From the IMG/VR virus record IMGVR_UViG_3300008267_000004, positions 64,001-128,000 of that record: a DNA stretch of 64,000 bases. One strand, given 5' to 3'. Positions 10,030-47,344 of the stretch are shown in pieces (the first letter of the stretch is position 1; every line of letters starts with the position of its first letter). Below the pieces are notes generated by a model, which worked only from the letters and a program-made list of their open reading frames with translations, ran no database searches and had not been told where the DNA came from. The translations under genes were made by a program, and so were the position numbers. Source of the DNA: a virus.

Positions 10030-10103
10030 TGGTGGACCGAGTGGGAATCGAACCCACAAGACCGCCGTGCAAAGGCGGCAGTTTACCATTAGCTTACCAG
10101 CCC
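10030..10103 (-). tRNA. tRNA-Ala(TGC)
   Basis: Cloverleaf, CCGCC-TTTGCAC-GGCGG anticodon arm, G3.U70 pair, encoded CCA. Confidence 0.93.
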
Positions 10104-10249
10104 AATTTATTTTTTATTTTGATTCTCCAAACATTGCTTATCAATATATTGTATATAAGGCTCTGTGTATTTATAGCCACCATCCATATTAGCTACTAAA
10201 TCTTGGCAGTATGTAATACATAAATATATAAAACACTTTGTCGCTAACA

Positions 10250-10492
10250 TTACTTCGTTAAACACTCCAACGCAAGTATATCTTCATCTGGAACTGATCC
10301 AACTATTTTACAAACATATTGATTTACTACATTTTTCTTTACATAATCTGGTTGTTTTTTACCATATACTACAACACCAATTATTACACCTAACGTAACT
10401 AATGCAACACCTAAATAAAATTTTATTTTTCTCTTAGCTAGAACTATTTGTGTATCTAATTTAGATGTTGGTTCTTTTTTCTTTTTTGTCAT
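10250..10492 (-). CDS. Small membrane protein (start refined to MTKKKK)
   Basis: One TM helix YLGVALVTLGVIIGVVVYG. Confidence 0.6.
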   Translation of the reverse strand: MTKKKKEPTSKLDTQIVLAKRKIKFYLGVALVTLGVIIGVVVYGKKQPDYVKKNVVNQYVCKIVGSVPDEDILALECLTK

Positions 10493-10533
10493 GACCACTA
10501 TCTCCTTGCAATAAATAGTCACCAAAACAAGAA

Positions 10534-10657
10534 CCAGCTTTTTATCAAGAAGCTGGAAACTTGTGTCGATCAAGACAAGTTTACGGTGGCCGAATCACCG
10601 AATCTTTTTTCTATGGATTGATCGCCCAGAAAGAAAACATAGAAGGTAGATTAAACC
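10534..10657 (-). ncRNA. Unclassified structured RNA, family X copy 1
   Basis: Shares 5' domain and 3' CCAGCUU hairpin with 45820-46012, with compensatory changes; lies just 3' of tRNA-Gly. Confidence 0.65.
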
Positions 10658-10661
10658 TAAT

Positions 10662-10736
10662 TGGAGCGGGTGGACGGATTTGAACCGACGACATCTAGTT
10701 TGGAAGACTAGAGTTCTACCACTGAACTACACCCGC
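10662..10736 (-). tRNA. tRNA-Gly(TCC)
   Basis: CTAGT-CTTCCAA-ACTAG arm, encoded CCA. Confidence 0.95.
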
Positions 10737-12117: not shown

Positions 12118-12406
12118 TGGTGGAGATGCGGGGAGTCGAACCCCGGTCCAAAAATACGTATTCTACAAAATGATACACAGGATTATCTTACAAGATATTA
12201 CAATTTATTACAGTTTAAAACAAAATTGCAACTTTTCTGTTTCGAGGCAAGTTGCCAGCCCAAGAATTACGCAGCTAGGGCGTAGAATTCAGAGTCAACG
12301 TCATCGTTGGCTTTTGTGTTGTTGAACCGTTTATTAAAGTCTGTAGCTGTTCGCAGACTTCCTGCATTTTGTTTTTAGTTACCTTTGTCGAAACCAAGTC
12401 ATCCCC
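12118..12406 (-). ncRNA. ssrA: tmRNA (289 nt), tag peptide ANDDVDSEFYALAA*
   Basis: 5' GGGGAUG...GGUUUCGAC; 3' GGGGUUCGACUCCCCGCAUCUCCACCA; G3.U pair; tag ORF at 12311-12267. Confidence 0.95.
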
Positions 12407-23865: not shown

Positions 23866-24273
23866 TTAAAACAGCTGTCGATAGAAGCTCATTGTTTCAT
23901 TTGCTAAGAGTTCACGCTGCTTATCAGGCAAAGTATCCTCAAGCAAACTAACCGTATCCGATGCAGCTGCAAACGTATTAGACCACCGAGCAATCTCGTT
24001 GCTCTGCTCAACAGTATTGCATGGACCGCTGTCGGGATCAGTATAGTCTGCAAAGCGTCTAGCTAGATGTGCAACAGCACGCTGCAAGCTGTAAACATTT
24101 TGATACTCATCGCGATCACTCCACACAGCTGATCGAATGATCGAGGCAGTCTGGTGACAAAAAGTATCACCACTCAAACTCCAATCCTCGTTGAGTCTAA
24201 CCAGCTGAATCTTTGCCGTGTCAAACAAGTGTTGCGCCTTTGCACTCATTAGTCCATCTCCTTTGGTTCGCAC
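23866..24273 (-). CDS. Hypothetical early protein
   Basis: ORF in the GC-richer block (likely start MSAKAQ). Confidence 0.55.
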   Translation of the reverse strand: MRTKGDGLMSAKAQHLFDTAKIQLVRLNEDWSLSGDTFCHQTASIIRSAVWSDRDEYQNVYSLQRAVAHLARRFADYTDPDSGPCNTVEQSNEIARWSNTFAAASDTVSLLEDTLPDKQRELLANETMSFYRQLF

Positions 24274-24794
24274 CGCTTACAGTACCGTGCAACAATACAC
24301 CCACCCAGGTACTGAGTGAGTACCCAGGTGAATCTAGCACAGGTATCACATTGACCCCGCTCCTTGCTATAGCTTATCTGATCATCCCCCATTACCCTAC
24401 TACCTCCGTGGTAACTCCTACGATCAAAGCAACTACCGCAAACCAGACTGTCAACGCGATCATATCTACCCCAGTTCAAAAATGTAAACAACCCAGAACG
24501 CAGCAACCACTACAGCTGCCAAACCAACCGCAGTCAAAGCCTCGATAACAACTTCCTTATTAATCACGCGGCACCTCGATTGCCTTATAAACCATCTTGC
24601 CAAACGCCCAGCTAACTCCAAGCATCATTGACGCAATCAGTACACCTGCCATCATCGCCTCGCATTCTTATCAAGCATCATATACCAGAGAGCAACGCAA
24701 TCCTTTTCGCTCACCTTGCACTCCTTTTCTGCTACACAGTTTGTTAGGGTTACAACCGCCAAAACGGCGGCTAGCACACGCTTCATTTCCTTAG

Positions 24795-25052
24795 TTACTC
24801 CGAACGCGAAAGGGTATACCAATCAACATAACCCTTCTTGATTTCCCCATATGTCTTGGGGTCCAGCTTACGCAGCGAATGCAGTCGATCACTTGCAATC
24901 GTGCGCTGCTTTGTAAGTTCACGCTCCAGCTCCTCGATGCGAGCAATCGCGTACTTGTGGTCAACCTTCGCCTTTTCTAGCTTCTCATGCTTCGTCATTT
25001 TACTGCTCCCGATTAAAGGTTTGAATAACTTCCGCCTCGATGCCTTCCTCAT
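24795..25052 (-). CDS. Small coiled-coil hypothetical protein
   Basis: Likely start MTKHEKLE. Confidence 0.55.
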   Translation of the reverse strand: MRKASRRKLFKPLIGSSKMTKHEKLEKAKVDHKYAIARIEELERELTKQRTIASDRLHSLRKLDPKTYGEIKKGYVDWYTLSRSE

Positions 25053-25167
25053 ACAGATCTGCGATTGTCACTTCACCACTTGTCAAACGCTCATATTGAT
25101 CGTCCGAGAGTGTAACAATGTCCGCACAGATATCCCAAGTGCCGTCACTCAGTGCTACGATTCGCAT
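25000..25167 (-). CDS. Small acidic hypothetical protein
   Basis: MRIVALSDGTW..., SD GGAG upstream. Confidence 0.5.
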   Translation of the reverse strand: MRIVALSDGTWDICADIVTLSDDQYERLTSGEVTIADLYEEGIEAEVIQTFNREQ

Positions 25168-25243
25168 TACTTTCTCCTTTTTTCCAGTTACCCGTTGCGC
25201 CATGCGGGCGGCTGGAAACCGCCCGAACGGGTTAGTTTGTTTG

Positions 25244-25621
25244 CTACTTGGTCTTGCGATTAGAAGCAGCAACCTTCTTCTTCTCGCACTCGGCGTTATA
25301 CCGAGCAACCAGAGCATGAGCAGTCTCAACCATCTTTGCATCACCGTTGCCATTAGCAACTGCCGTGATGAAAGCGACCATATCGGCCTTGAGAGAATCC
25401 TTCACCTTAGCCTTAGAAGTCTTAACAACCTCACCAGCAGGGAAGAAACCACCATCGGTTCCCTTAGTCGAAACAATCTGACCCTTATCCTTAGCGGTCT
25501 TAATGTCCTTCTTCGAGAATCCACCGACGTACTCAATCGCACCAACAGGGCAACCACGACCCTCCTTGGCATTGAAAGCACGAACGAACTCAACGATAGA
25601 GGTAGCCATTTTATTTCCCAT
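25244..25621 (-). CDS. Small basic winged-helix-like protein (paralog 1)
   Basis: FVRAFNAKEGRGCPVGAIEYVGGFSK...STKGTDGGFF, highly similar to 27614-28000. Confidence 0.65.
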   Translation of the reverse strand: MGNKMATSIVEFVRAFNAKEGRGCPVGAIEYVGGFSKKDIKTAKDKGQIVSTKGTDGGFFPAGEVVKTSKAKVKDSLKADMVAFITAVANGNGDAKMVETAHALVARYNAECEKKKVAASNRKTK

Positions 25622-25795
25622 TCCTTCTGACGGTCAAACCGTCTTTGAGTGATAGGTTCAAGGGAACCATTCCCTCTCACCAACTTACAGGACAGAGTGT
25701 ACCACGACCGGGTTGTGAAGTCCAGTACAAAGAAACACTCACCTTAGAACTTTCGCTGCGCCTTGGGCGGCTGGATTTCACCGCCAGCGAACCTT

Positions 25796-25972
25796 CTATG
25801 TCTCAGCGTCGAACTTCACTCGACGCATCTCGCGGTGATACATACGCTTGAGGTCGCGGACCCACTTGCGAACCCCGCGCTTTCCGCGAGCAATCGTGTG
25901 ACCATCAATCTTGACGTGAATGGTCCAACGCTCGTTCTTCATTCCCTCGACACCACGCTTGAAATCCTTCAT
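25796..25972 (-). CDS. Small basic hypothetical protein (58 aa)
   Basis: Manual translation MKDFKRGVEGMKNERWTIHVK...DAET*. Confidence 0.5.
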   Translation of the reverse strand: MKDFKRGVEGMKNERWTIHVKIDGHTIARGKRGVRKWVRDLKRMYHREMRRVKFDAET

Positions 25973-26089
25973 TCCTACTCCTTGATCTTGAGGTTGATTG
26001 AAAGTCCGAAAACAAATCCCAGCGAGAGGCTGGCAATCCCAATGCAGACCATTTGCACGATAATCATATCTTCCATGCTCTTTCCTTTC

Positions 26090-26473
26090 TTACCGCTTAC
26101 CCATGAGGAAAGCGGTGGTTGCATTGACGTTGCTTGCCTTGATCCGAGTGATACCGTTTGCCTTAGCAGTAACGGCGGCTGACTTCCGCATTTCAGCGGG
26201 GATTCCAGTCTGACGCTCAAGTTCCATACCCAGATACTCATTCCAGATAAGCAACTTGCGAGTCTCGCGGGTATCACCAAGCTCAAAACCCAGAGCGTTG
26301 AGCTTTTCACCCTCACGACGCAGCACGGCATTGTTCTTGCCAATGTGCGACATGATCGCGTTTCGCGTAAGCAGTCGAGCCTTACGCATAGTCTGGATCG
26401 TGTTACGAATCTCATTCACCAGAGTTTCAATCTCGTTCTGCGTCATAGTCTCAACCGTCATTTGATTCCTCAT
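26090..26473 (-). CDS. Hypothetical early protein
   Basis: SD plus ORF downstream of a promoter-like -10. Confidence 0.65.
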   Translation of the reverse strand: MRNQMTVETMTQNEIETLVNEIRNTIQTMRKARLLTRNAIMSHIGKNNAVLRREGEKLNALGFELGDTRETRKLLIWNEYLGMELERQTGIPAEMRKSAAVTAKANGITRIKASNVNATTAFLMGKR

Positions 26474-26880
26474 TCCTTATTGTTGGGAGGGACCATTCCC
26501 TCTCTCAACCTTACCTGCACATTCTACCACAAGACCCCATGCCTTGGAAGCGACTGTCAGTAAAACCGACCCACTATTAAACTCGACAGTTAGAGCAAAG
26601 ATCCGAGTTTAGTACTATCCCAAGGATAGCGGCGGCTGGGGCCTTTCGTGCATCCACCAGCGCGTCGATGATGTGTGTATATTACACCAAGTCGGTCGAG
26701 AACGGAAGAGACTGAGAGTGAGATTGACCCACTTTAAAACAACATCGTTAGAGTTAACTTCTGGACACATGGGCGGCGGCGGGCAACCTCTATCCCTAGA
26801 ATATCCAACATTTAACACTTGGGATAGAGTGCCAGCCCCCGCCTCTATTGATAGAACTAACTATCATCGAGGCTCTAGCG

Positions 26881-27117
26881 TTAGAGGAACTCGTTGCTTG
26901 TATCATACCAATCCGCATTGGGATCAGTATCATCTTCCTCTTCCTCGGTATCATCATCGAGGGTTTCCTCGTCCTCGACAATAAACTCGTTTGCGTGTGC
27001 CATATCCGCAACGTCGTCCTCGGACATATACTTGAGGCACGCATTGATTACCGTGTCACGGTCGAGGATTCCATCCTCAATCATCTCCAGAATCGTGTTT
27101 GTTACCTTGCGAGTCAT
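26881..27117 (-). CDS. Small acidic protein
   Basis: D/E-rich C-terminal half. Confidence 0.65.
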   Translation of the reverse strand: MTRKVTNTILEMIEDGILDRDTVINACLKYMSEDDVADMAHANEFIVEDEETLDDDTEEEEDDTDPNADWYDTSNEFL

Positions 27118-27329
27118 TATTCATCCCTTTCGTCAACCGTGACGGTTGCAATCTCAATCCTGGACGTATCGTGTCCAAAGTACAACCAAGCAGAATCGCC
27201 GTCGTACTTGTATTCACTCATGTCATACCTGCGCTCGACAAACGCCTTTGCCTTCTCATACGTCGAGAAAAGAGCAACCGTCTGCTCGCCCTGATATGCT
27301 TCAACATCCAAAACCGCGTAAACGTCCAT
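27117..27329 (-). CDS. Hypothetical protein
   Basis: Translationally coupled ORF. Confidence 0.6.
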   Translation of the reverse strand: MDVYAVLDVEAYQGEQTVALFSTYEKAKAFVERRYDMSEYKYDGDSAWLYFGHDTSRIEIATVTVDERDE

Positions 27330-27544
27330 TACCCACGCTCCACATTAAAAGTGTTTGACCAAGGATTCTCGTTTGTCCACTGATCCCAAAGCTGCCGAGT
27401 ATTGAGCAAAACATCGTCGCCATCATTAGCGTCGAGCATCTCGCGAGTAATACCAAGCACCTGCATCTCGTGCGTTTCGCAAAGCACAGCAGATGGAGCA
27501 AAAGTCTTTTCACCACAAGTAGCACAACCGAAAGTCTGCATCAT
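27329..27544 (-). CDS. Small Cys/His-containing hypothetical protein
   Basis: CATC...LCETH; SD AAGGAG. Confidence 0.6.
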   Translation of the reverse strand: MMQTFGCATCGEKTFAPSAVLCETHEMQVLGITREMLDANDGDDVLLNTRQLWDQWTNENPWSNTFNVERG

Positions 27545-27613
27545 ATCTCCTTTTAAGTATTAACCCGTTGCGCCGTGCCGGGGGCTGGTTTGCCCCCGGA
27601 ACCGGGTTATATG

Positions 27614-28000
27614 CTAGTCGTCCGACTTGCGGCGCTTCGCGTTCTGCGCGTCGTAATCACGCAGAATCGCCTTTGCCTGCTCGACGGTATCCGCATCGAG
27701 CGTCTGACCAACCGACAGCATACGCATAAACGCAGCCATCTGATTCTTAACGGTTGCCTTCACAACCGGACCCTTTGCAACCGGCTTTGCACCAGCAACA
27801 AAGAAACCACCTTCCGAACCCTTGCCGGATTCCAGCTTACCGCTCGACTTTGCGGCCTTAATCTCGGCCTTCGAGAATCCGCCAACATACTCGATTGCAC
27901 CCATCGGGCAACCGCGATTCTCGTTAGCGTTGAACTTCCGAACGAAAGCAACAATCGCCTCCATCTTAGAAGCCGAAACCGTACCATTAGCCTTAGCCAT
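27614..28000 (-). CDS. Small basic winged-helix-like protein (paralog 2)
   Basis: FVRKFNANENRGCPMGAIEYVGGFSK...SGKGSEGGFF. Confidence 0.65.
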   Translation of the reverse strand: MAKANGTVSASKMEAIVAFVRKFNANENRGCPMGAIEYVGGFSKAEIKAAKSSGKLESGKGSEGGFFVAGAKPVAKGPVVKATVKNQMAAFMRMLSVGQTLDADTVEQAKAILRDYDAQNAKRRKSDD

Positions 28001-42230: not shown

Positions 42231-42286
42231 AGTATAGCAAAAACTGGCTGTGAAGTCAACCAGGAAAAAAACTGCACGGATAGAAC
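42231..42286 (-). promoter_or_regulatory. sigma70 promoter with variant box (TTCTATCC)
   Basis: TTGACT (42259-42254)-17 bp-TATACT (42236-42231). Confidence 0.8.
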
Positions 42287-42317
42287 AAAAAAACCCCGCC
42301 TAACTTAATAGGCGGGG
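42287..42317 (-). terminator. Intrinsic terminator ending the tRNA operon
   Basis: CCCCGCCT/AGGCGGGG stem with T7 on the minus strand. Confidence 0.8.
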
Positions 42318-42535
42318 TAAGTGGAAACCACACTAGAATATAATAATGTGTAGCTTATCGGGTTTTGCCATCTCTTCGCGGGCAAGTCACTAGATGCACT
42401 TCAATAACTTTCTAGGCTCTCCATGGGAACATGGAAGGGATAAATGTATGTAAAAATAAAAAGTCCCAAAACCTAGACTGGTGTTCATCAGCATCGTAAA
42501 ACACCATTTACTGTAAAATATGTCCTATCCACTTA
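42318..42535 (-). ncRNA. Unclassified structured RNA, family Y copy C (divergent)
   Basis: Closing stem UAAGUGGA/UCCACUUA; core CUAGUGAC-UUGCC-CGCGAAGAGAU-GGCAA-AACCCGAUAAG. Confidence 0.55.
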
Positions 42536-42555
42536 GTTCTGAATTAAGTACAAAT

Positions 42556-42644
42556 TGGCGGAAAGTGTTGGATTTGAACCAACGGACCCTTTAGGGATCG
42601 ACAGTTTAGCAAACTGCTCGTTTAAGCCGCTCACGCAACTTTCC
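42556..42644 (-). tRNA. tRNA-Ser(GCT)
   Basis: Type II cloverleaf, G73, CCA. Confidence 0.95.
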
Positions 42645-42652
42645 ATGAAAAC

Positions 42653-42728
42653 TGGAGAGGGTAGTAAGATTCGCACTTACGATTGGGAGTTTTGCAGGCT
42701 CCTGCCTTACTCTCTTGGCTATACCCTC
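42653..42728 (-). tRNA. tRNA-Cys(GCA)
   Basis: Loop CTGCAAA, U73, CCA. Confidence 0.92.
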
Positions 42729-42731
42729 ATA

Positions 42732-42820
42732 TGGAGGAAGAAGTGAGATTCGAACTCACGGACCCTTGTGGGATCTCTTGTTTTCTAGACAAGTACCATA
42801 AACCGCTCGGTCATTCTTCC
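42732..42820 (-). tRNA. tRNA-Ser(AGA), rare A34 isoacceptor
   Basis: CTTGT-CTAGAAA-ACAAG arm, long variable arm, U73, CCA. Confidence 0.88.
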
Positions 42821-42827
42821 AAAAAAT

Positions 42828-42903
42828 TGGTAGGTTCAACAGGAATTGCACCTGTACTCTCTCGATTATCAGTCGAGTGCTTTACTAATTAAGCTATGAA
42901 CCC
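42828..42903 (-). tRNA. tRNA-Ile(GAT)
   Basis: CTCGA-CTGATAA-TCGAG arm, CCA. Confidence 0.92.
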
Positions 42904-42914
42904 TCACAAAGCAA

Positions 42915-43118
42915 GTAGTTAACAGGGACACTTCGACTATGGTCCCCAATGGGATCGAAGAAATGTCCTTTTCGATGGGTAACTATCTTCGCTGTTACCA
43001 CACTAGAGTTATTTTTTAGCTTTTAGGCCCATTCCAGATTCTAAGTCTAGGGGAACCAAGGGGGCTTAATCACCAACCCACCTATTATCCCACGCCAGGG
43101 ATTCATCTAGCTAACTAC
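42915..43118 (-). ncRNA. Unclassified structured RNA, family Y copy B
   Basis: Closing stem GUAGUUAGC/GUUAACUAC; UAGAUGAAU; CUAGUGU-GGUAAC-AGCGAAGAUA-GUUACC-CAUCGAAAAG. Confidence 0.7.
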
Positions 43119-43180
43119 AAAAAGTAACCCATCAGTTTGAGGATACTAAGTTTCAGCATAGCCTTGACAGGTTTTGTTAT

Positions 43181-43258
43181 TGGCGAGGAGTACGGGACTT
43201 GAACCCGTGATCTCTGGCGTGACAGGCCAGTGCTTTAAACCAACTAAGCTAACTCCCC
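43181..43258 (-). tRNA. tRNA-Asp(GTC)
   Basis: CTGGC-CTGTCAC-GCCAG arm, CCA. Confidence 0.95.
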
Positions 43259-43269
43259 ATTAAAAGATT

Positions 43270-43354
43270 TGGTAGGGTCAGTCGGATTCGAACCGACACT
43301 CCTTGCGGAACCAGATTTTGAGTCTAGCGTGGCTACCTGTTACACCATGACCCC
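43270..43354 (-). tRNA. tRNA-Leu(CAA)
   Basis: Type II cloverleaf, CCA. Confidence 0.95.
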
Positions 43355-43362
43355 ACAAAAAG

Positions 43363-43706
43363 AACAGCATAAGGTGTGTTACTACACCAAAAGGAACCCA
43401 TACTTGCTACTTTGCATACCTCACGTTATCATCCGCTTGGCACTGTTCTGCTTGTATGCCGGGCATTCTCCTATTCCCCAACCCAGCAGGACTGATTTAT
43501 TTACAATTAAGTTAGTCGTGGTTTACCTACTTAACCCGGCTGATTACGGTTTTGAACCATCTATAGTTTATCGGGGTTTCCATAGACAATTTTCAGTACG
43601 CTTTCGCTCTGTCCACGCTGGAAAACAGCTTAACTAACACCTGCCTAGGATTTCGTCCTACTCATTATAAGATGGCTACTCTTAAGCCAACTTCCCGTAT
43701 GCTGTT
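43363..43706 (-). ncRNA. Large structured RNA (344 nt) with 23S rRNA H43-like segment; GOLLD/ROOL-class candidate
   Basis: Closing stem AACAGCAUA/UAUGCUGUU; GGGAAGUUGGCUUAAGAGUAGCCAUCUUAUAAUGAGU at its 5' end; lies between two tRNAs. Confidence 0.65.
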
Positions 43707-43716
43707 TACAACTATT

Positions 43717-43791
43717 TGGTTCCGGTAGATGGATTCGAACCACCGTTCACAGATTCAAAGTCTGCTGTCCTGCCAGTTAGACGATACCGGA
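43717..43791 (-). tRNA. tRNA-Gln(TTG)
   Basis: GCAGA-CTTTGAA-TCTGT arm, CCA. Confidence 0.93.
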
Positions 43792-43796
43792 TCAAA

Positions 43797-43881
43797 TGGT
43801 GGGCAAGGTCGGAATCGAACCGACACTCCTTTCGGAACTGGCTTCTAAGACCAGCGCGGCTACCAGTTACGCCACCTGCCC
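43797..43881 (-). tRNA. tRNA-Leu(TAG)
   Basis: Type II cloverleaf, CCA. Confidence 0.95.
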
Positions 43882-43890
43882 ATACTACTA

Positions 43891-44289
43891 TTAGAAATCT
43901 ACAATCTTCTTGAATTCAGTACCCGGTTCCATAACCAAGGGTTCCTCGCGTACCTCTACCCAACCGCTGTAGTAGCCGTTTGATGAGTTACGGAATTCAA
44001 TCGTACAGTGACCCTTATCGGTCTTAACCTTGATCATGTTAACCTGGATAAGGTTATAGTTGTCCTCCCATGAATCCCCGCCAACATTCTCGTATTCAAG
44101 GAACTTGGCATTGTCAAACACCAGAGCGTTATCACAATGTTCAAACCATGAATTAGAACAACAATCACCGTAGGCGTTAAGGCTATACCACACACCATCA
44201 ACCTTCCACATCATAACGTCGCGGTTCTGGTTGATAAGCGCATCAGTAATCGTTTTGCCCACCATCGGCTCAAAATCATTATAACCCAT
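43891..44289 (-). CDS. Conserved phage hypothetical protein (possibly DUF7448-like)
   Basis: GDCCSNSWF and RNSSNGYYSG motifs. Confidence 0.7.
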   Translation of the reverse strand: MGYNDFEPMVGKTITDALINQNRDVMMWKVDGVWYSLNAYGDCCSNSWFEHCDNALVFDNAKFLEYENVGGDSWEDNYNLIQVNMIKVKTDKGHCTIEFRNSSNGYYSGWVEVREEPLVMEPGTEFKKIVDF

Positions 44290-44339
44290 AATACACCTAT
44301 ACGATTTGTGGCGGCTGGCAGGCCGCGTTAGACAAAATT

Positions 44340-44413
44340 TGGTGCTTCCACTCAGAATCGAACTGAGAACGCTGCGTTACAAAGGCAGAGTTATACCGTT
44401 TAACTATAGAAGC
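44340..44413 (-). tRNA. tRNA-Thr(TGT)
   Basis: Loop TTTGTAA, CCA. Confidence 0.9.
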
Positions 44414-44418
44414 ATGAT

Positions 44419-44632
44419 GAATCTGCAATTGAAAGATTGAATTTCAATGGGGTTTGCAAGCCCTATTCAACCCTTGTCGATGGCAAACGATCTTCGCTGT
44501 TTGCACACTAGCTGCTTTGTTTGTTAATTGCTCTGATGCCGCTTAACAGAGTTGGCAACTCCTAGTCGTCAGTTTGCATGGTGTAAGTAGCAAAACATCC
44601 ACTAAAGTTATTCATCTATCTTTTGCAGATTC
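44419..44632 (-). ncRNA. Unclassified structured RNA, family Y copy A
   Basis: 10-bp closing stem GAAUCUGCAA/UUGCAGAUUC; UAGAUGAAU; CUAGUGU-GCAAAC-AGCGAAGAUC-GUUUGC-CAUCGACAAG. Confidence 0.7.
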
Positions 44633-44636
44633 AAAT

Positions 44637-44711
44637 TGGTTGGAGAACTAGGATTCGAACCTAGATAGGCAGATTCAGAGTCTGCCGTCCTGCCCGTTAG
44701 ACGATTCCCCA
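44637..44711 (-). tRNA. tRNA-Gln(CTG)
   Basis: GCAGA-CTCTGAA-TCTGC arm, CCA. Confidence 0.95.
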
Positions 44712-44716
44712 ACAAA

Positions 44717-44793
44717 TGGCGAGGATAGTAGGAGTTGAACCTACAACTTCCAGACTCGTAATCTGGTACTCTCTCCAATTGAGTTATATCCCC
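44717..44793 (-). tRNA. tRNA-Arg(ACG)
   Basis: CCAGA-TTACGAG-TCTGG arm, CCA. Confidence 0.93.
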
Positions 44794-44797
44794 ATGT

Positions 44798-44871
44798 TGG
44801 CAGGTCGTGAAGGAATCGAACCCTCGTCAACTGATTTGGAGGCAGTTATGTTTCCATTACACTAACGACCC
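44798..44871 (-). tRNA. tRNA-Trp(CCA)
   Basis: Loop CTCCAAA, CCA end. Confidence 0.9.
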
Positions 44872-44878
44872 ACTAACC

Positions 44879-45259
44879 TTACGTTTCTGACTTTGTTTCC
44901 TCTGCTGGGGTTTCATCCTTAACATAACGCAGGGCAAGATGATTAAAGATATCTACCTTGACGTTATAACTAAGTTCAACCTCAACAATATCGCAGTTCA
45001 GATATGGATTGTGCTTCATATCAGCAAATGCACCAAAGTCAAACGTGCTAAATCTTCCATCCTGTCCACGCTTTAGAACAGCATTTCTTCCGTAATAATT
45101 ATCTTTGTATACATTGGTTAGATGTAGGTTAAGAGTCTTTAACGAATCCCACATTTTACCATGACGACCAAAACACGGCCAACTTGATCCAGATGAAAAA
45201 AGACCATCTTTACGACGACGAATCATATAGATTTTATTTTCTTCCTGCTTTTCCTTCAT
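44879..45259 (-). CDS. Hypothetical phage protein
   Basis: IRRRKDGLFSSGSSWP...GKMW motif; SD. Confidence 0.65.
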   Translation of the reverse strand: MKEKQEENKIYMIRRRKDGLFSSGSSWPCFGRHGKMWDSLKTLNLHLTNVYKDNYYGRNAVLKRGQDGRFSTFDFGAFADMKHNPYLNCDIVEVELSYNVKVDIFNHLALRYVKDETPAEETKSET

Positions 45260-45286
45260 ATTATCCTCAAGTAGTTAGAACATATT

Positions 45287-45361
45287 TGGTGACCCTACAG
45301 GGAATTGAACCCTGATCTAGAGATTGAGAATCTCTTGTCCTAACCTTTAGACGATAGGGCC
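45287..45361 (-). tRNA. tRNA-Glu(CTC)
   Basis: AGAGA-TTCTCAA-TCTCT arm, CCA. Confidence 0.93.
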
Positions 45362-45365
45362 AAAT

Positions 45366-45441
45366 TGGGGTGGACAACGGGAATCGAACCCGTATAGCCG
45401 GAGTCACAGTCCAGTACTTTAACCATTTAAGATATGTCCAC
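45366..45441 (-). tRNA. tRNA-His(GTG)
   Basis: Loop CTGTGAC, C73, CCA; encoded -1 base is U. Confidence 0.92.
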
Positions 45442-45446
45442 ACTTT

Positions 45447-45523
45447 TGGTTGAAACGGTGGGAGTCGAACCCACAATAATCTGCGTATGAGACAGATGCT
45501 TTAACCTGTTAAGCTACGTTTCA
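45447..45523 (-). tRNA. tRNA with CAT anticodon (elongator Met or Ile2; not initiator)
   Basis: TCTGT-CTCATAC-GCAGA arm, U1-A72 paired, CCA. Confidence 0.88.
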
Positions 45524-45530
45524 ACGATCT

Positions 45531-45605
45531 TGGTCGGAACAACAGGATTTGAACCTGTAACATTCTGCGTGTAAAGCAGACGCTCTACCATTGAGCTATG
45601 TTCCG
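45531..45605 (-). tRNA. tRNA-Val(TAC)
   Basis: TCTGC-TTTACAC-GCAGA arm, CCA. Confidence 0.93.
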
Positions 45606-45617
45606 ATAAAACAAAAT

Positions 45618-45694
45618 TGGTCGGGGTAGCAGGATTCGAACCTGCGACCTCTTGATCCCAAATCAAGCGCACTACCAAGCTGTGCTATACCCCG
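45618..45694 (-). tRNA. tRNA-Pro(TGG)
   Basis: CTTGA-TTTGGGA-TCAAG arm, CCA. Confidence 0.95.
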
Positions 45695-45698
45695 GTTA

Positions 45699-45785
45699 TG
45701 GTGGGAGATGAAGGAGTCGCGCCTACGGAGTCCCATGGACGATAGATTTACAGTCTACCCCGTCCCTCTAACGGTATAACCTCCC
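45699..45785 (-). tRNA. tRNA-Tyr(GTA), deviant T-loop
   Basis: GTAGA-CTGTAAA-TCTAT arm, long variable arm, T-loop CGCGACT, CCA. Confidence 0.85.
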
Positions 45786-45819
45786 ATTTCTAATTATCTT
45801 AACAGTCTCCAAAAAAAGT

Positions 45820-46012
45820 CCAGCTTTTTCGCCAAGAAGCTGGAAACTTGTTCGATGCTGGCTGATTTATAGCTTTCGCTATACGAGAACCACTCGCTTT
45901 CTTAATGTTAGTGGAACCTTTTTGCTCCATCGCAAGCATTGGCAGTTCCAAGCCAAAATCTTTTTTCTGTGAGTTGATTGCCCGAAAGGAAACACAGATG
46001 GTAGATTAGACC
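45820..46012 (-). ncRNA. Unclassified structured RNA, family X copy 2
   Basis: Homologous ends to 10534-10657 with a larger central insert. Confidence 0.65.
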
Positions 46013-46021
46013 GAAAAAGAA

Positions 46022-46124
46022 AGACGAGTCAGTACCGCTTAATTGCAGTTAAGCTTCCTTCGCTTCTGCAAGAACCGCACATAAGATTCCCGCTCATATT
46101 GGGGAATCTTATGTGCGCTCGTCT
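46022..46124 (-). ncRNA. Structured RNA with a 16-bp hairpin and a possible pseudoknot
   Basis: AGACGAG/CUCGUCU closing stem; CGCACAUAAGAUUCCC/GGGAAUCUUAUGUGCG; UUGCAG/CUGCAA and GCUUAA/UUAAGC. Confidence 0.5.
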
Positions 46125-46126
46125 AA

Positions 46127-46202
46127 TGGTGAATCGGGAGGGAATCGAACCCTCAACAAACTGGTTAAGAGCCAGTTACTCTACCAATTGAGTTACCGAT
46201 TC
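46127..46202 (-). tRNA. tRNA-Lys(CTT)
   Basis: ACTGG-CTCTTAA-CCAGT arm, CCA. Confidence 0.93.
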
Positions 46203-46207
46203 ATATT

Positions 46208-46283
46208 TGGTGCTGCCCCTTGGAATCGAACCAAGTTCAAAGGCTCTTCAGACCTCCGCTATGACCACATCAGCTAAAGCAGC
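46208..46283 (-). tRNA. tRNA-Phe(GAA)
   Basis: Loop CTGAAGA, CCA. Confidence 0.9.
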
Positions 46284-46288
46284 ATAAT

Positions 46289-46363
46289 TGGTGACCCTAA
46301 GCGGATTTGAACCGCTGTAACAGCCTTGAAAGGGCTGTGTCCTAACCGTTAGACGATAGGGCC
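46289..46363 (-). tRNA. tRNA-Glu(TTC)
   Basis: CAGCC-CTTTCAA-GGCTG arm, CCA. Confidence 0.95.
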
Positions 46364-46428
46364 ATGAAAGATGACCCCTGCGTACCCGAATAGTCTACAG
46401 ACTAAACGGGCAGAGGCAAGGGCCGTTA

Positions 46429-46505
46429 TGGTAGGAAATGTGAGATTCGAACTCACGACCAATCGCTTAAAAGGCGAGTGCTCTAACCGACTGAGCTAAT
46501 TTCCC
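46429..46505 (-). tRNA. tRNA-Lys(TTT)
   Basis: Loop CTTTTAA, CCA. Confidence 0.92.
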
Positions 46506-46511
46506 ATGAAT

Positions 46512-46587
46512 TGGCTGATCCGGTAGGATTCGAACCTACGGTAGGCGAGTTAACAGCTCGCTGCCTTACCTGCTTGGCTACGGATCA
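46512..46587 (-). tRNA. tRNA-Asn(GTT)
   Basis: GCGAG-CTGTTAA-CTCGC arm, CCA. Confidence 0.95.
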
Positions 46588-46778
46588 ACATATTCTTTTA
46601 GTACAGATTCTGTTAGGGTTATAGTAACTTCGTTACCATTTCGTCTATGCTTACCGACTACATAATAAACTCCGCTATTACTACCATACCACAAATTTGG
46701 TCCAACGATTCGCATTGGCTGAATAATCTCTTCTGAGAAGATACAAGTTACAAGATCACCCGGCTTAAAACGATTCAT
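46578..46778 (-). CDS. Small SH3/KOW-like protein inside the tRNA operon
   Basis: FKPGDLV; SD GGAG; stop overlaps the tRNA-Asn 5' end. Confidence 0.55.
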   Translation of the reverse strand: MNRFKPGDLVTCIFSEEIIQPMRIVGPNLWYGSNSGVYYVVGKHRRNGNEVTITLTESVLKEYVDP

Positions 46779-46793
46779 TGAACTCTCCTAAAT

Positions 46794-46870
46794 TGGCGAT
46801 CCCGGCAGGAGTCGAACCTGCAACCTAGTGGGTAGAAGCCACTTGCTCTATCCAATTGAGCTACGGAACC
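46794..46870 (-). tRNA. tRNA-Arg(TCT)
   Basis: AGTGG-CTTCTAC-CCACT arm, CCA. Confidence 0.95.
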
Positions 46871-46877
46871 ATTAAAT

Positions 46878-46963
46878 TGGTAGGTGTGGACGGACTCGAA
46901 CCGTCAAGCCTGTTAAGGCAACAGATTTTAAGTCTGTCGTGTATACCATTCCACCACACACCC
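46878..46963 (-). tRNA. tRNA-Leu(TAA)
   Basis: Type II cloverleaf, CCA. Confidence 0.95.
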
Positions 46964-47047: not shown

Positions 47048-47138
47048 TGGTGCGCCGTGAGGGAATCGAACCCACACTAAGGCCGATAATCTGTCGGAAG
47101 GAGTTTATAAGTCTCCCCTGCATCCAATGCGACGGCGC
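47048..47138 (-). tRNA. Atypical tRNA with TAT anticodon (Ile-UAU-like)
   Basis: GCGCCGU/ACGGCGC acceptor, tiny D-arm GCA-UUGGA-UGC, loop CTTATAA, long variable arm, CCA. Confidence 0.75.
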
Positions 47139-47221
47139 ATAACTTACATTAATTACTATATCATACTTAATTCAGTTGTTAAAGAGCAAAGTTTTTTTCT
47201 TTCTCACTTAATTACCTGCCC

Positions 47222-47277
47222 ATTATAGCACAAGCAAAAGTGCCGGTCAAGAAGAAAAAAACAGCAGCGATAGAGTA
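47222..47277 (-). promoter_or_regulatory. tRNA-operon promoter with TACTCTATC box
   Basis: TTGACC-17 bp-TATAAT; box at 47277-47269. Confidence 0.85.
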
Positions 47278-47314
47278 AAAATTTCATTCATAACGCTGCA
47301 CAACCGCCCGGTAG

Positions 47315-47344
47315 ATTATACCACAAGTCGGCGGGCGGAGTCAA
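47315..47344 (-). promoter_or_regulatory. Second tRNA-operon promoter
   Basis: TTGACT-18 bp-TGG-TATAAT, GC-rich discriminator. Confidence 0.8.

Follow-up and report, generated by a model that had tools for sequence, protein, structure and literature searches.

Large bacteriophages often carry clusters of transfer RNA (tRNA) genes, and some of these phages hold structured RNAs that are not tRNAs, among them the species 1 and species 2 RNAs of phage T4 and the GOLLD and ROOL RNAs, which are much larger than the RNAs described here, at several hundred nucleotides (nt). The T4 RNAs (rnaC and rnaD) are small, stable RNAs of unknown function that lie within the phage tRNA cluster, on the tRNA strand, and adjoin a tRNA (tRNA-Arg). 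GOLLD (RF01998) and ROOL (RF03087) are typically found in phages and prophages, often beside tRNA genes (PMC5737381). Comparative analysis of a 64,000-nt window (bases 64001-128000 of the 187,450-base-pair (bp) IMG/VR virus record IMGVR_UViG_3300008267_000004, rated complete and derived from an uncultivated aquatic phage) shows that family Y, whose members are small structured RNAs, is real and had not been catalogued before; three copies (A, B and C) lie on the sense strand of a tRNA operon spanning about 5 kb. The family is new and its core is well defined; the kind to which it belongs, structured RNAs of unknown function beside phage tRNAs, is already known.

Family Y resembles the T4 RNAs in its small size, its place in a phage tRNA cluster, its strand and its adjoining tRNAs, and it resembles GOLLD and ROOL as an ornate structured RNA of unknown function. 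It differs from rnaC and rnaD in that these are tRNA look-alikes (rnaC ends in a GGGUUCGAAUCCC T arm and an acceptor-like end); no tRNA-model match falls within Y. The searches described below used two covariance models: R1, which covers a 61-nt core and was trained on A, B and C alone, and R2, which finds nothing in the T4 tRNA region (best score 7.3 bits). Kinship with rnaC and rnaD was rejected. GOLLD and ROOL gave no Rfam match in the window at any threshold used. The original prediction had been unable to assign these RNAs to a family and had named raiA, GOLLD and ROOL as the first to be excluded; this is upheld by Rfam 15 (4227 models), none of which matches A, B or C at the gathering score. 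A scan at an expectation value (E) of 10 or less, of the 5 kb and of A and B alone, returned chance-level matches only (for example mir-2833, and CRISPR-DR25, whose 21.5 bits fall short of its threshold of 36), and raiA, GOLLD, ROOL, the known self-cleaving ribozymes, RNase P, tRNA and 5S all remained without an Rfam match in A, B and C at the thresholds used. Comparison with 50,697 GenBank phages by blastn found nothing for A or B. Kinship with two neighbouring RNAs, D and X, was also rejected: the common GCGAAAGC is just a GNRA hairpin, and R2 gives no score.

The operon contains 24 tRNA genes (42556-46963, minus strand; ARAGORN and Rfam), most of them separated by spacers of 3-12 nt. Three long gaps without open reading frames (ORFs) hold family Y (A, 44414-44636; B, 42904-43180; C, 42285-42555). 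The three predicted minus-strand copies were all found at the stated coordinates, filling the space between tRNAs or, for C, between the last tRNA and the terminator. The 5′ starts lie at or shortly past the CCA of a tRNA (in B, after a separate 5′ hairpin), and the 3′ ends of A and B fall a few bases short of the next tRNA. Each copy is closed, as had been predicted, by a terminal stem (P1) of its own: 11 bp in A (44633-44623 with 44428-44418), 9 bp including one G.U in B (43118-43110 with 42921-42913) and 7-8 bp in C (42535-42528 with 42325-42318); the sequence of P1 is different in every type. Enclosed by P1, copy A has a junction (J1/2) ending in UA and helix P2 (GAUG/CAUC), then a variable arm at 44609-44512, its core at 44511-44473 and, at 44472-44434, hairpins on the 3′ side. 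Copy B shares the UA-GAUG...CAUC pairing; its core lies at 43006-42968, and P6 is a long helix on its 3′ side; copy C has a P1 of AAGUGGA/UCCACUU, an additional hairpin in J1/2, a P2 of GGUU/AACC and a core at 42393-42354. Lengths in the family range from about 150 to 215 nt.

The core is highly specific to these three loci. The pattern CTAGTG-N8-GCGAAGA-N11/12-CGANAAG has three matches in the 64 kb, which are A, B and C, where 0.00 are expected (100 shuffles). Over the whole of its own genome R1 finds only A, B and C, at 62-69 bits, with the next match at 12.5 bits; R2 scores the same three at 58-70 bits, with the next match at 17 bits.

Comparison of the sequence types shows a fold, here given as a model, of two stacked three-way junctions. 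From 5′ to 3′ it comprises P1, a junction ending in UA, the 4-bp P2, one or two variable arms off P2, AGU, the hairpin P5, whose 3′ strand runs without a gap into P2′, then GANAAG, the variable hairpin P6 and the return of P1. The smallest member (type H, about 150 nt; see below) shows the shared plan directly in its minimum-free-energy fold: P1, UA, P2 (GGUA), a variable arm ending in CU, AGUUU, P5, P2′ (UGCC) without an intervening nucleotide, GACAAA, P6 and the P1 return, to which the other types add arms. The conserved core amounts to about 45 nt. Its apex consists of an N1-N9 pair, a G.A, a C-G, a GAA triloop and a bulge of 1-2 nt; G2, A8 and C3-G7 are invariant, N1-N9 covaries (A-U in A and B, C-G in C, H and a further type, G), and the triloop is GAA except in type G, where it is UAA. 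The double T-loop module that recognizes the tRNA elbow (two 5-nt T-loops, AG..A and UG..A) was considered for this region and rejected, as Y has no consistent AG..A/UG..A pair: J4/5 takes the forms AGUGU, AGUGA, AGUUU and AGUAU, and apex N1 is Watson-Crick paired with N9.

The pairings differ in the weight of their support. The P5 hairpin, which had been predicted to covary, does so: in a model alignment of seq­uences (7, of which 6 are distinct), 97.9% of cells in P5 and the apex are paired, 5 of the 8 pairs carry changes on both sides, none of 500 shuffles reaches the score and no slid register comes close. The predicted long-range pairing, now P2, also stands, as GAUG/CAUC in A and B and GGUU/AACC in C; a fourth combination, GGUA/UGCC, occurs in H, and a G.U variant, GGUG/CAUC, in the copy of A from a sister strain. 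In C and H the sole 4-mer of the 5′ region complementary to P2′ is the one that follows UA (shuffles, 7-9% per type). G.U pairs in P1, P5 and P6 indicate that the structure belongs to the tRNA strand only. Folding z-scores are modest (A, -2.85; B, -2.06; C, -3.66). One predicted element, a CUAG stem around a variable insert, is not supported, because near-identical strain copies have other bases in place of its 5′ CUAG (GUUG in the copy of A, CCAG in that of B) while the 3′ CUAGUG is invariant; just the CU of CUAGU appears to close the variable arm. An alternative pairing through an upstream copy of GCAAAC in A was likewise dropped, since the strain copy has GGAAAC and the motif is not conserved.

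Relatives of the phage were collected through its PhoH protein, which yielded about 290 related virus contigs, and R1 and R2 were run over 48 whole records. By R2, only one of these besides the phage's own genome carries family Y (G005, whose PhoH is 80% identical); the other 46 related phage records lack it. The nearest relatives are fragments without the operon or with the operon cut (G004), and no cultured relative of the phage was found, PhoH identity staying below 40%. The G005 copy, type G, scores 27.4 bits by R1 (E 1.6e-4 to 3.6e-4) and lies in the tRNA operon directly 5′ of tRNA-Ile(GAU), the same position as B. A pattern scan of metagenomes gave 31 loci, of which two, L099 and L115, are genuine; both derive from a sister strain with about 92-93% identity, and the rest have neither the hairpin nor tRNAs. 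The sister-strain contigs carry A (94% identity), B (95% identity) and a fifth type, H, which scores 28.7 bits by R1 and follows an additional tRNA-His in the tRNA operon; at the position of this cassette, the operon of the present phage runs from tRNA-Thr straight to a DUF7448 gene. Modelling from A, B and C, as proposed with the original prediction, has added two further types, and because R1 was trained only on A, B and C, its detection of G and H provides independent confirmations of the family. The presence of the extra tRNA-His and type H in the sister strain, and not in the present phage, indicates that the operon gains and loses cassettes of tRNA plus RNA.

Searches further afield found no more members. 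The strict core pattern matches no other record in IMG/VR; a looser IMG/VR pattern gave 71 loci, of which none passes R2; scanning 185,579 prokaryote genomes for a pattern produced 18 loci, all of which lack the hairpin; and operon or adjacent proteins, used as bait for syntenic loci, brought in no useful relatives. As far as seen, family Y is confined to one small clade. A separate observation concerns G005, in which a 160-nt gap without an ORF between tRNA-Glu and tRNA-Gln (L092:2045-2204) carries UAUGCGGG/CCCGCAUA as its terminal stem together with a hairpin, UAGUG-GUUGG-GUCGAGAAA-CCAAC-CCCGCAUAA, that resembles the core of copy C; R1 gives it 12.3 bits (E 0.75), and the RNA could be distantly related to family Y, in reduced form.

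The strain comparison separates the core from its periphery. Copy A differs from its sister-strain counterpart by 25 changes in 44634-44510 and by none in 44509-44414, a 96-nt stretch reaching from the core to the 3′ end; as a benchmark, the tRNAs show 0-2 changes per 25 nt and a neighbouring ORF up to 9 per 25. The absence of changes from the core to the 3′ end, against 25 in the 5′ arm, together with the similar rates of the tRNAs, argues that the core is under selection, and the approximately 45-nt core, invariant between strains, is on this comparison under tRNA-like constraint. By the same comparison, the arms drift at about the rate of the most variable coding sequence yet stay helical: the P3 hairpin of copy B changes from UCCC/GGGA to UCGGC/GCCGA in the strain with pairing kept, four pairs of P6 in B are changed between strains (one on both sides) and all still pair, and the variable arm of A has compensatory changes in two helices. 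These observations bear on whether the elements could be functionless or selfish DNA, either decaying insertions with inverted ends or leftover duplicated spacers. Such an origin would fit the narrow distribution in one small clade and the terminal inverted repeats on every element, but 0 substitutions over 96 nt of A where about 8 are expected at a strain divergence of about 8%, the compensatory stem changes, and inverted ends that differ among copies, unlike those of mobile elements, make it extremely improbable. The claim of a genuine RNA family is supported by covariation, by the occurrence of homologs in two further phage sources and by a core conserved like a tRNA.

The operon that carries family Y has two near-consensus sigma-70 promoters and an exact boxA of the type found in ribosomal RNA (rrn) operons in its leader, and a strong intrinsic terminator at its end. 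The boxA 13-mer, TGCTCTTTAACAA, is identical in the Escherichia coli rrnH leader and in the leader of the G005 tRNA operon. In its predicted signals, two promoters followed by boxA, the architecture of the operon resembles that of a ribosomal RNA (rRNA) operon. The twin promoters and the boxA shared with rrnH suggest that the phage borrows host rRNA antitermination and, with the sigma-70 signals, that the host is a proteobacterium. The operon also contains, in a 362-nt gap between tRNA-Leu(CAA) and tRNA-Gln(UUG) (43355-43716, minus strand; similar strain copy at L099:925-1285), another structured RNA, the 5′ part of which (GGAAGUUGGCUUAAGAGUAGCCAUCUUAUAA) agrees at 25 of 31 positions with helix 43 of the GTPase-associated centre (E. 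coli 23S rRNA 1055-1085).

Given this setting, family Y might act only in cis, as a structured spacer for the folding or processing of tRNAs or as a control of read-through or decay, with no role once released. The copies are flush with tRNAs, one stands directly before the terminator, the operon already has a cis signal in boxA, and in both phages one copy is placed directly 5′ of tRNA-Ile(GAU). Most spacers in the operon are only 3-12 nt, however, so that long spacers are not needed for processing, and a 45-nt core that is as strict as a tRNA and stands beside different tRNAs and an ORF (type H) exceeds what a spacer would need; an exclusively cis-acting element is an unlikely account.

The arrangement of the conserved residues raises the question of catalysis. 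Small self-cleaving ribozymes are commonly built from invariant junctions and variable stems, and in family Y about 20 invariant nucleotides lie in helix junctions amid stems that vary but remain paired. A small ribozyme, self-cleaving or otherwise catalytic, could have an active site made of UA, AGU, GANAAG and the apex and might, for example, cut the operon transcript. Hammerhead ribozymes cleave 3′ of stem III and have a three-way junction lined by the strands CUGAUGA and GAAA; Y is similar in its three-way junction, invariant junction strands and freely varying stems, and its 5′ block UAGAUGA resembles CUGAUGA. Identification as a hammerhead was rejected, since the 5′ strand (UAGAUGA or UAGGUGA) lacks equivalents of C3 and U4, which are U and A, one position is A or G between strains and no hammerhead model matches; nor does any twister, pistol, hatchet, hepatitis delta virus (HDV) or other ribozyme model match single copies at E≤10. 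For release of the RNA, moreover, the tRNA-processing enzymes would already suffice; the ribozyme hint in the original prediction finds no support, and a catalytic role appears improbable. Bacterial RNase P RNA, in which CR-I (GGAAAGUCC) and CR-V (ACAGAANCCGGCUUA) form P4 and a specificity domain is added, was likewise discarded as an identity for Y: Y lacks CR-I and CR-V and matches no RNase P model. It shares with E. coli M1 RNA an identity of 9-10 nt (the 10-mer CUAGAUGAAU, M1 positions 326-335) and, in B, one further 9-mer, about what chance gives for such lengths.

A third possibility is that Y mimics a host RNA site and acts as a decoy for a translation factor, a synthetase or a defence nuclease, the apex serving as a 7-nt loop, GCGAAGA, like an anticodon arm with GAA, or imitating some other ribosome or tRNA site. 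The loop of the phage tRNA-Phe, CUGAAGA, can be set beside the Y apex, the operon is built like an rRNA operon, and the neighbouring RNA at 43355-43716 has its match to 23S rRNA. Against mimicry, the loop has no U33 and type G has UAA in place of GAA; R2 reaches at best 5.9 bits on the E. coli rrnH operon; words shared by Y with 16S, 23S and 5S rRNA are no longer than 10-13 nt and scattered, with local alignments at chance level (E. coli rRNA only); and the core with its hairpin occurs in no bacterial genome in the pattern scan of prokaryotes. Mimicry of this kind is decidedly improbable.

Our tentative preference, which stops a little short of being probable, is that family Y is a stable RNA excised together with the tRNAs, whose core binds a translation or RNA-metabolism factor. 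RNase P acting at the downstream tRNA would set the 3′ end of each RNA, a trailer cut past the upstream CCA would set the 5′ end, and P1 would seal both ends to give a stable RNA. The core would then serve as the surface by which a partner, either protein or RNA and probably belonging to the translation or RNA-metabolism machinery, recognizes the RNA, with the arms as scaffolding only, and the several abundant copies per genome would act in trans during infection as decoy, sponge or scaffold. This reading is favoured because several old paralogs have kept only the core, the ends are sealed by P1, the operon appears to be highly expressed and antiterminated and a neighbouring RNA matches 23S helix 43. 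Protein-titrating RNAs include 6S RNA, the CsrB-type sponges and the bacterial Y RNA/YrlA, of which the YrlA type is tied to tRNA-like modules. Family Y is like them only in its proposed action, in which a factor would be bound by the conserved module of a stable, abundant RNA; it shows no sequence or model similarity to them, and the only YrlA matches in the operon are weak and fall on tRNAs, not on Y.

Several observations weigh against excision and factor binding. The combination of conserved core and free arms is just as compatible with a ribozyme or a cis-acting signal. Comparison of Y with the rest of the phage genome on both strands, antisense targets included, found only chance 12-14-mers, and no look-alike of Y was found in E. 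coli rRNA. The structural model has weak points as well: type G has no clean P2 (GGUG against CCC, in which only GG(U)G pairs with CCC), in both A and G the P2 5′ block can extend P1 instead, the folds of lowest free energy for A and B depart from the comparative model, and the five sequence types come from three closely related sources, so that covariation statistics are thin outside P5. A broader proposal, which is speculative and on balance unlikely, is that of a pseudo-rRNA operon, with twin strong promoters and boxA, in which tRNAs and several abundant structured RNAs, one of them resembling the 23S GTPase-associated centre, would be made together and the RNAs would jointly reprogram or protect host translation, the Y core being a new module for a translation or RNA-processing factor or a new small ribozyme and the arms tuning specificity.

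Table 1. Positions of family Y RNAs and of the predicted signals of the tRNA operon (window numbering unless a contig is named).
Feature	Position	Strand	Remarks
Copy A	44418..44633	-	flush between tRNA-Gln(CUG) and tRNA-Thr(UGU)
Conserved core, as in A	44473..44511	-	CU-AGUGU (J4/5), 6-bp P5, structured apex, P2′, GANAAG (J2/6)
Copy B	42913..43118	-	directly 5′ of tRNA-Ile(GAU)
Separate hairpin preceding copy B	43173-43126	-	after tRNA-Asp
Copy C	42318..42535	-	last operon element, between final tRNA and terminator
Type H with extra tRNA-His, sister strain	L115:40-255	-	
Operon leader	47155..47344	-	two sigma-70 promoters and rrn-type boxA
Sigma-70 promoters, near-consensus	47344-47315 and 47250-47222	-	11/12 matches each
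BoxA, exact rrn type	47188-47176	-	13-mer TGCTCTTTAACAA
Further boxA TGCTCTTTAACAA sites	L092:724-736 (G005); L004:128-140		
Intrinsic terminator, operon end	42293..42318	-	10-bp stem and U tract, directly after copy C

Other features of the operon and window were recorded in passing. Two tRNA-like genes on the minus strand were not called by ARAGORN: one, at 47051-47139, corresponds in position to the tRNA-Ile(UAU) of G005 and G004, has a 7-bp acceptor stem, a CCA end, the loop CUUAUAA (anticodon UAU) and a long extra arm, and reaches 24.5 bits with the Rfam tRNA-Sec model; the other, at 45700-45790, has the loop CUGUAAA (GUA, Tyr-like) and a long extra arm. The DUF7448 protein encoded within the tRNA operon (132 amino acids; 43891-44289, minus strand; Pfam E 5.7e-13) has one relative found in IMG/VR, at 53% identity, which is not beside tRNAs. 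About 30 kb from the main operon, the phage has its own transfer-messenger RNA (tmRNA), with the tag ANDDVDSEFYALAA, and two more tRNAs (12118-12406 and 10030-10736, minus strand); the tag of the G004 tmRNA is ANEDVEFESYALAA. G+C content is 0.50 at 24001-28000, against 0.32-0.35 on both sides.

Family Y is tractable, being compact, with an invariant core of about 45 nt, a simple two-junction fold and several natural variants, and it is set in an rRNA-like operon beside an RNA that resembles a binding site for ribosomal proteins or factors. Were it merely a processing spacer, its description would be a useful annotation and little more; if the core binds a host factor or is catalytic, family Y would show the purpose of the passengers of phage tRNA operons.

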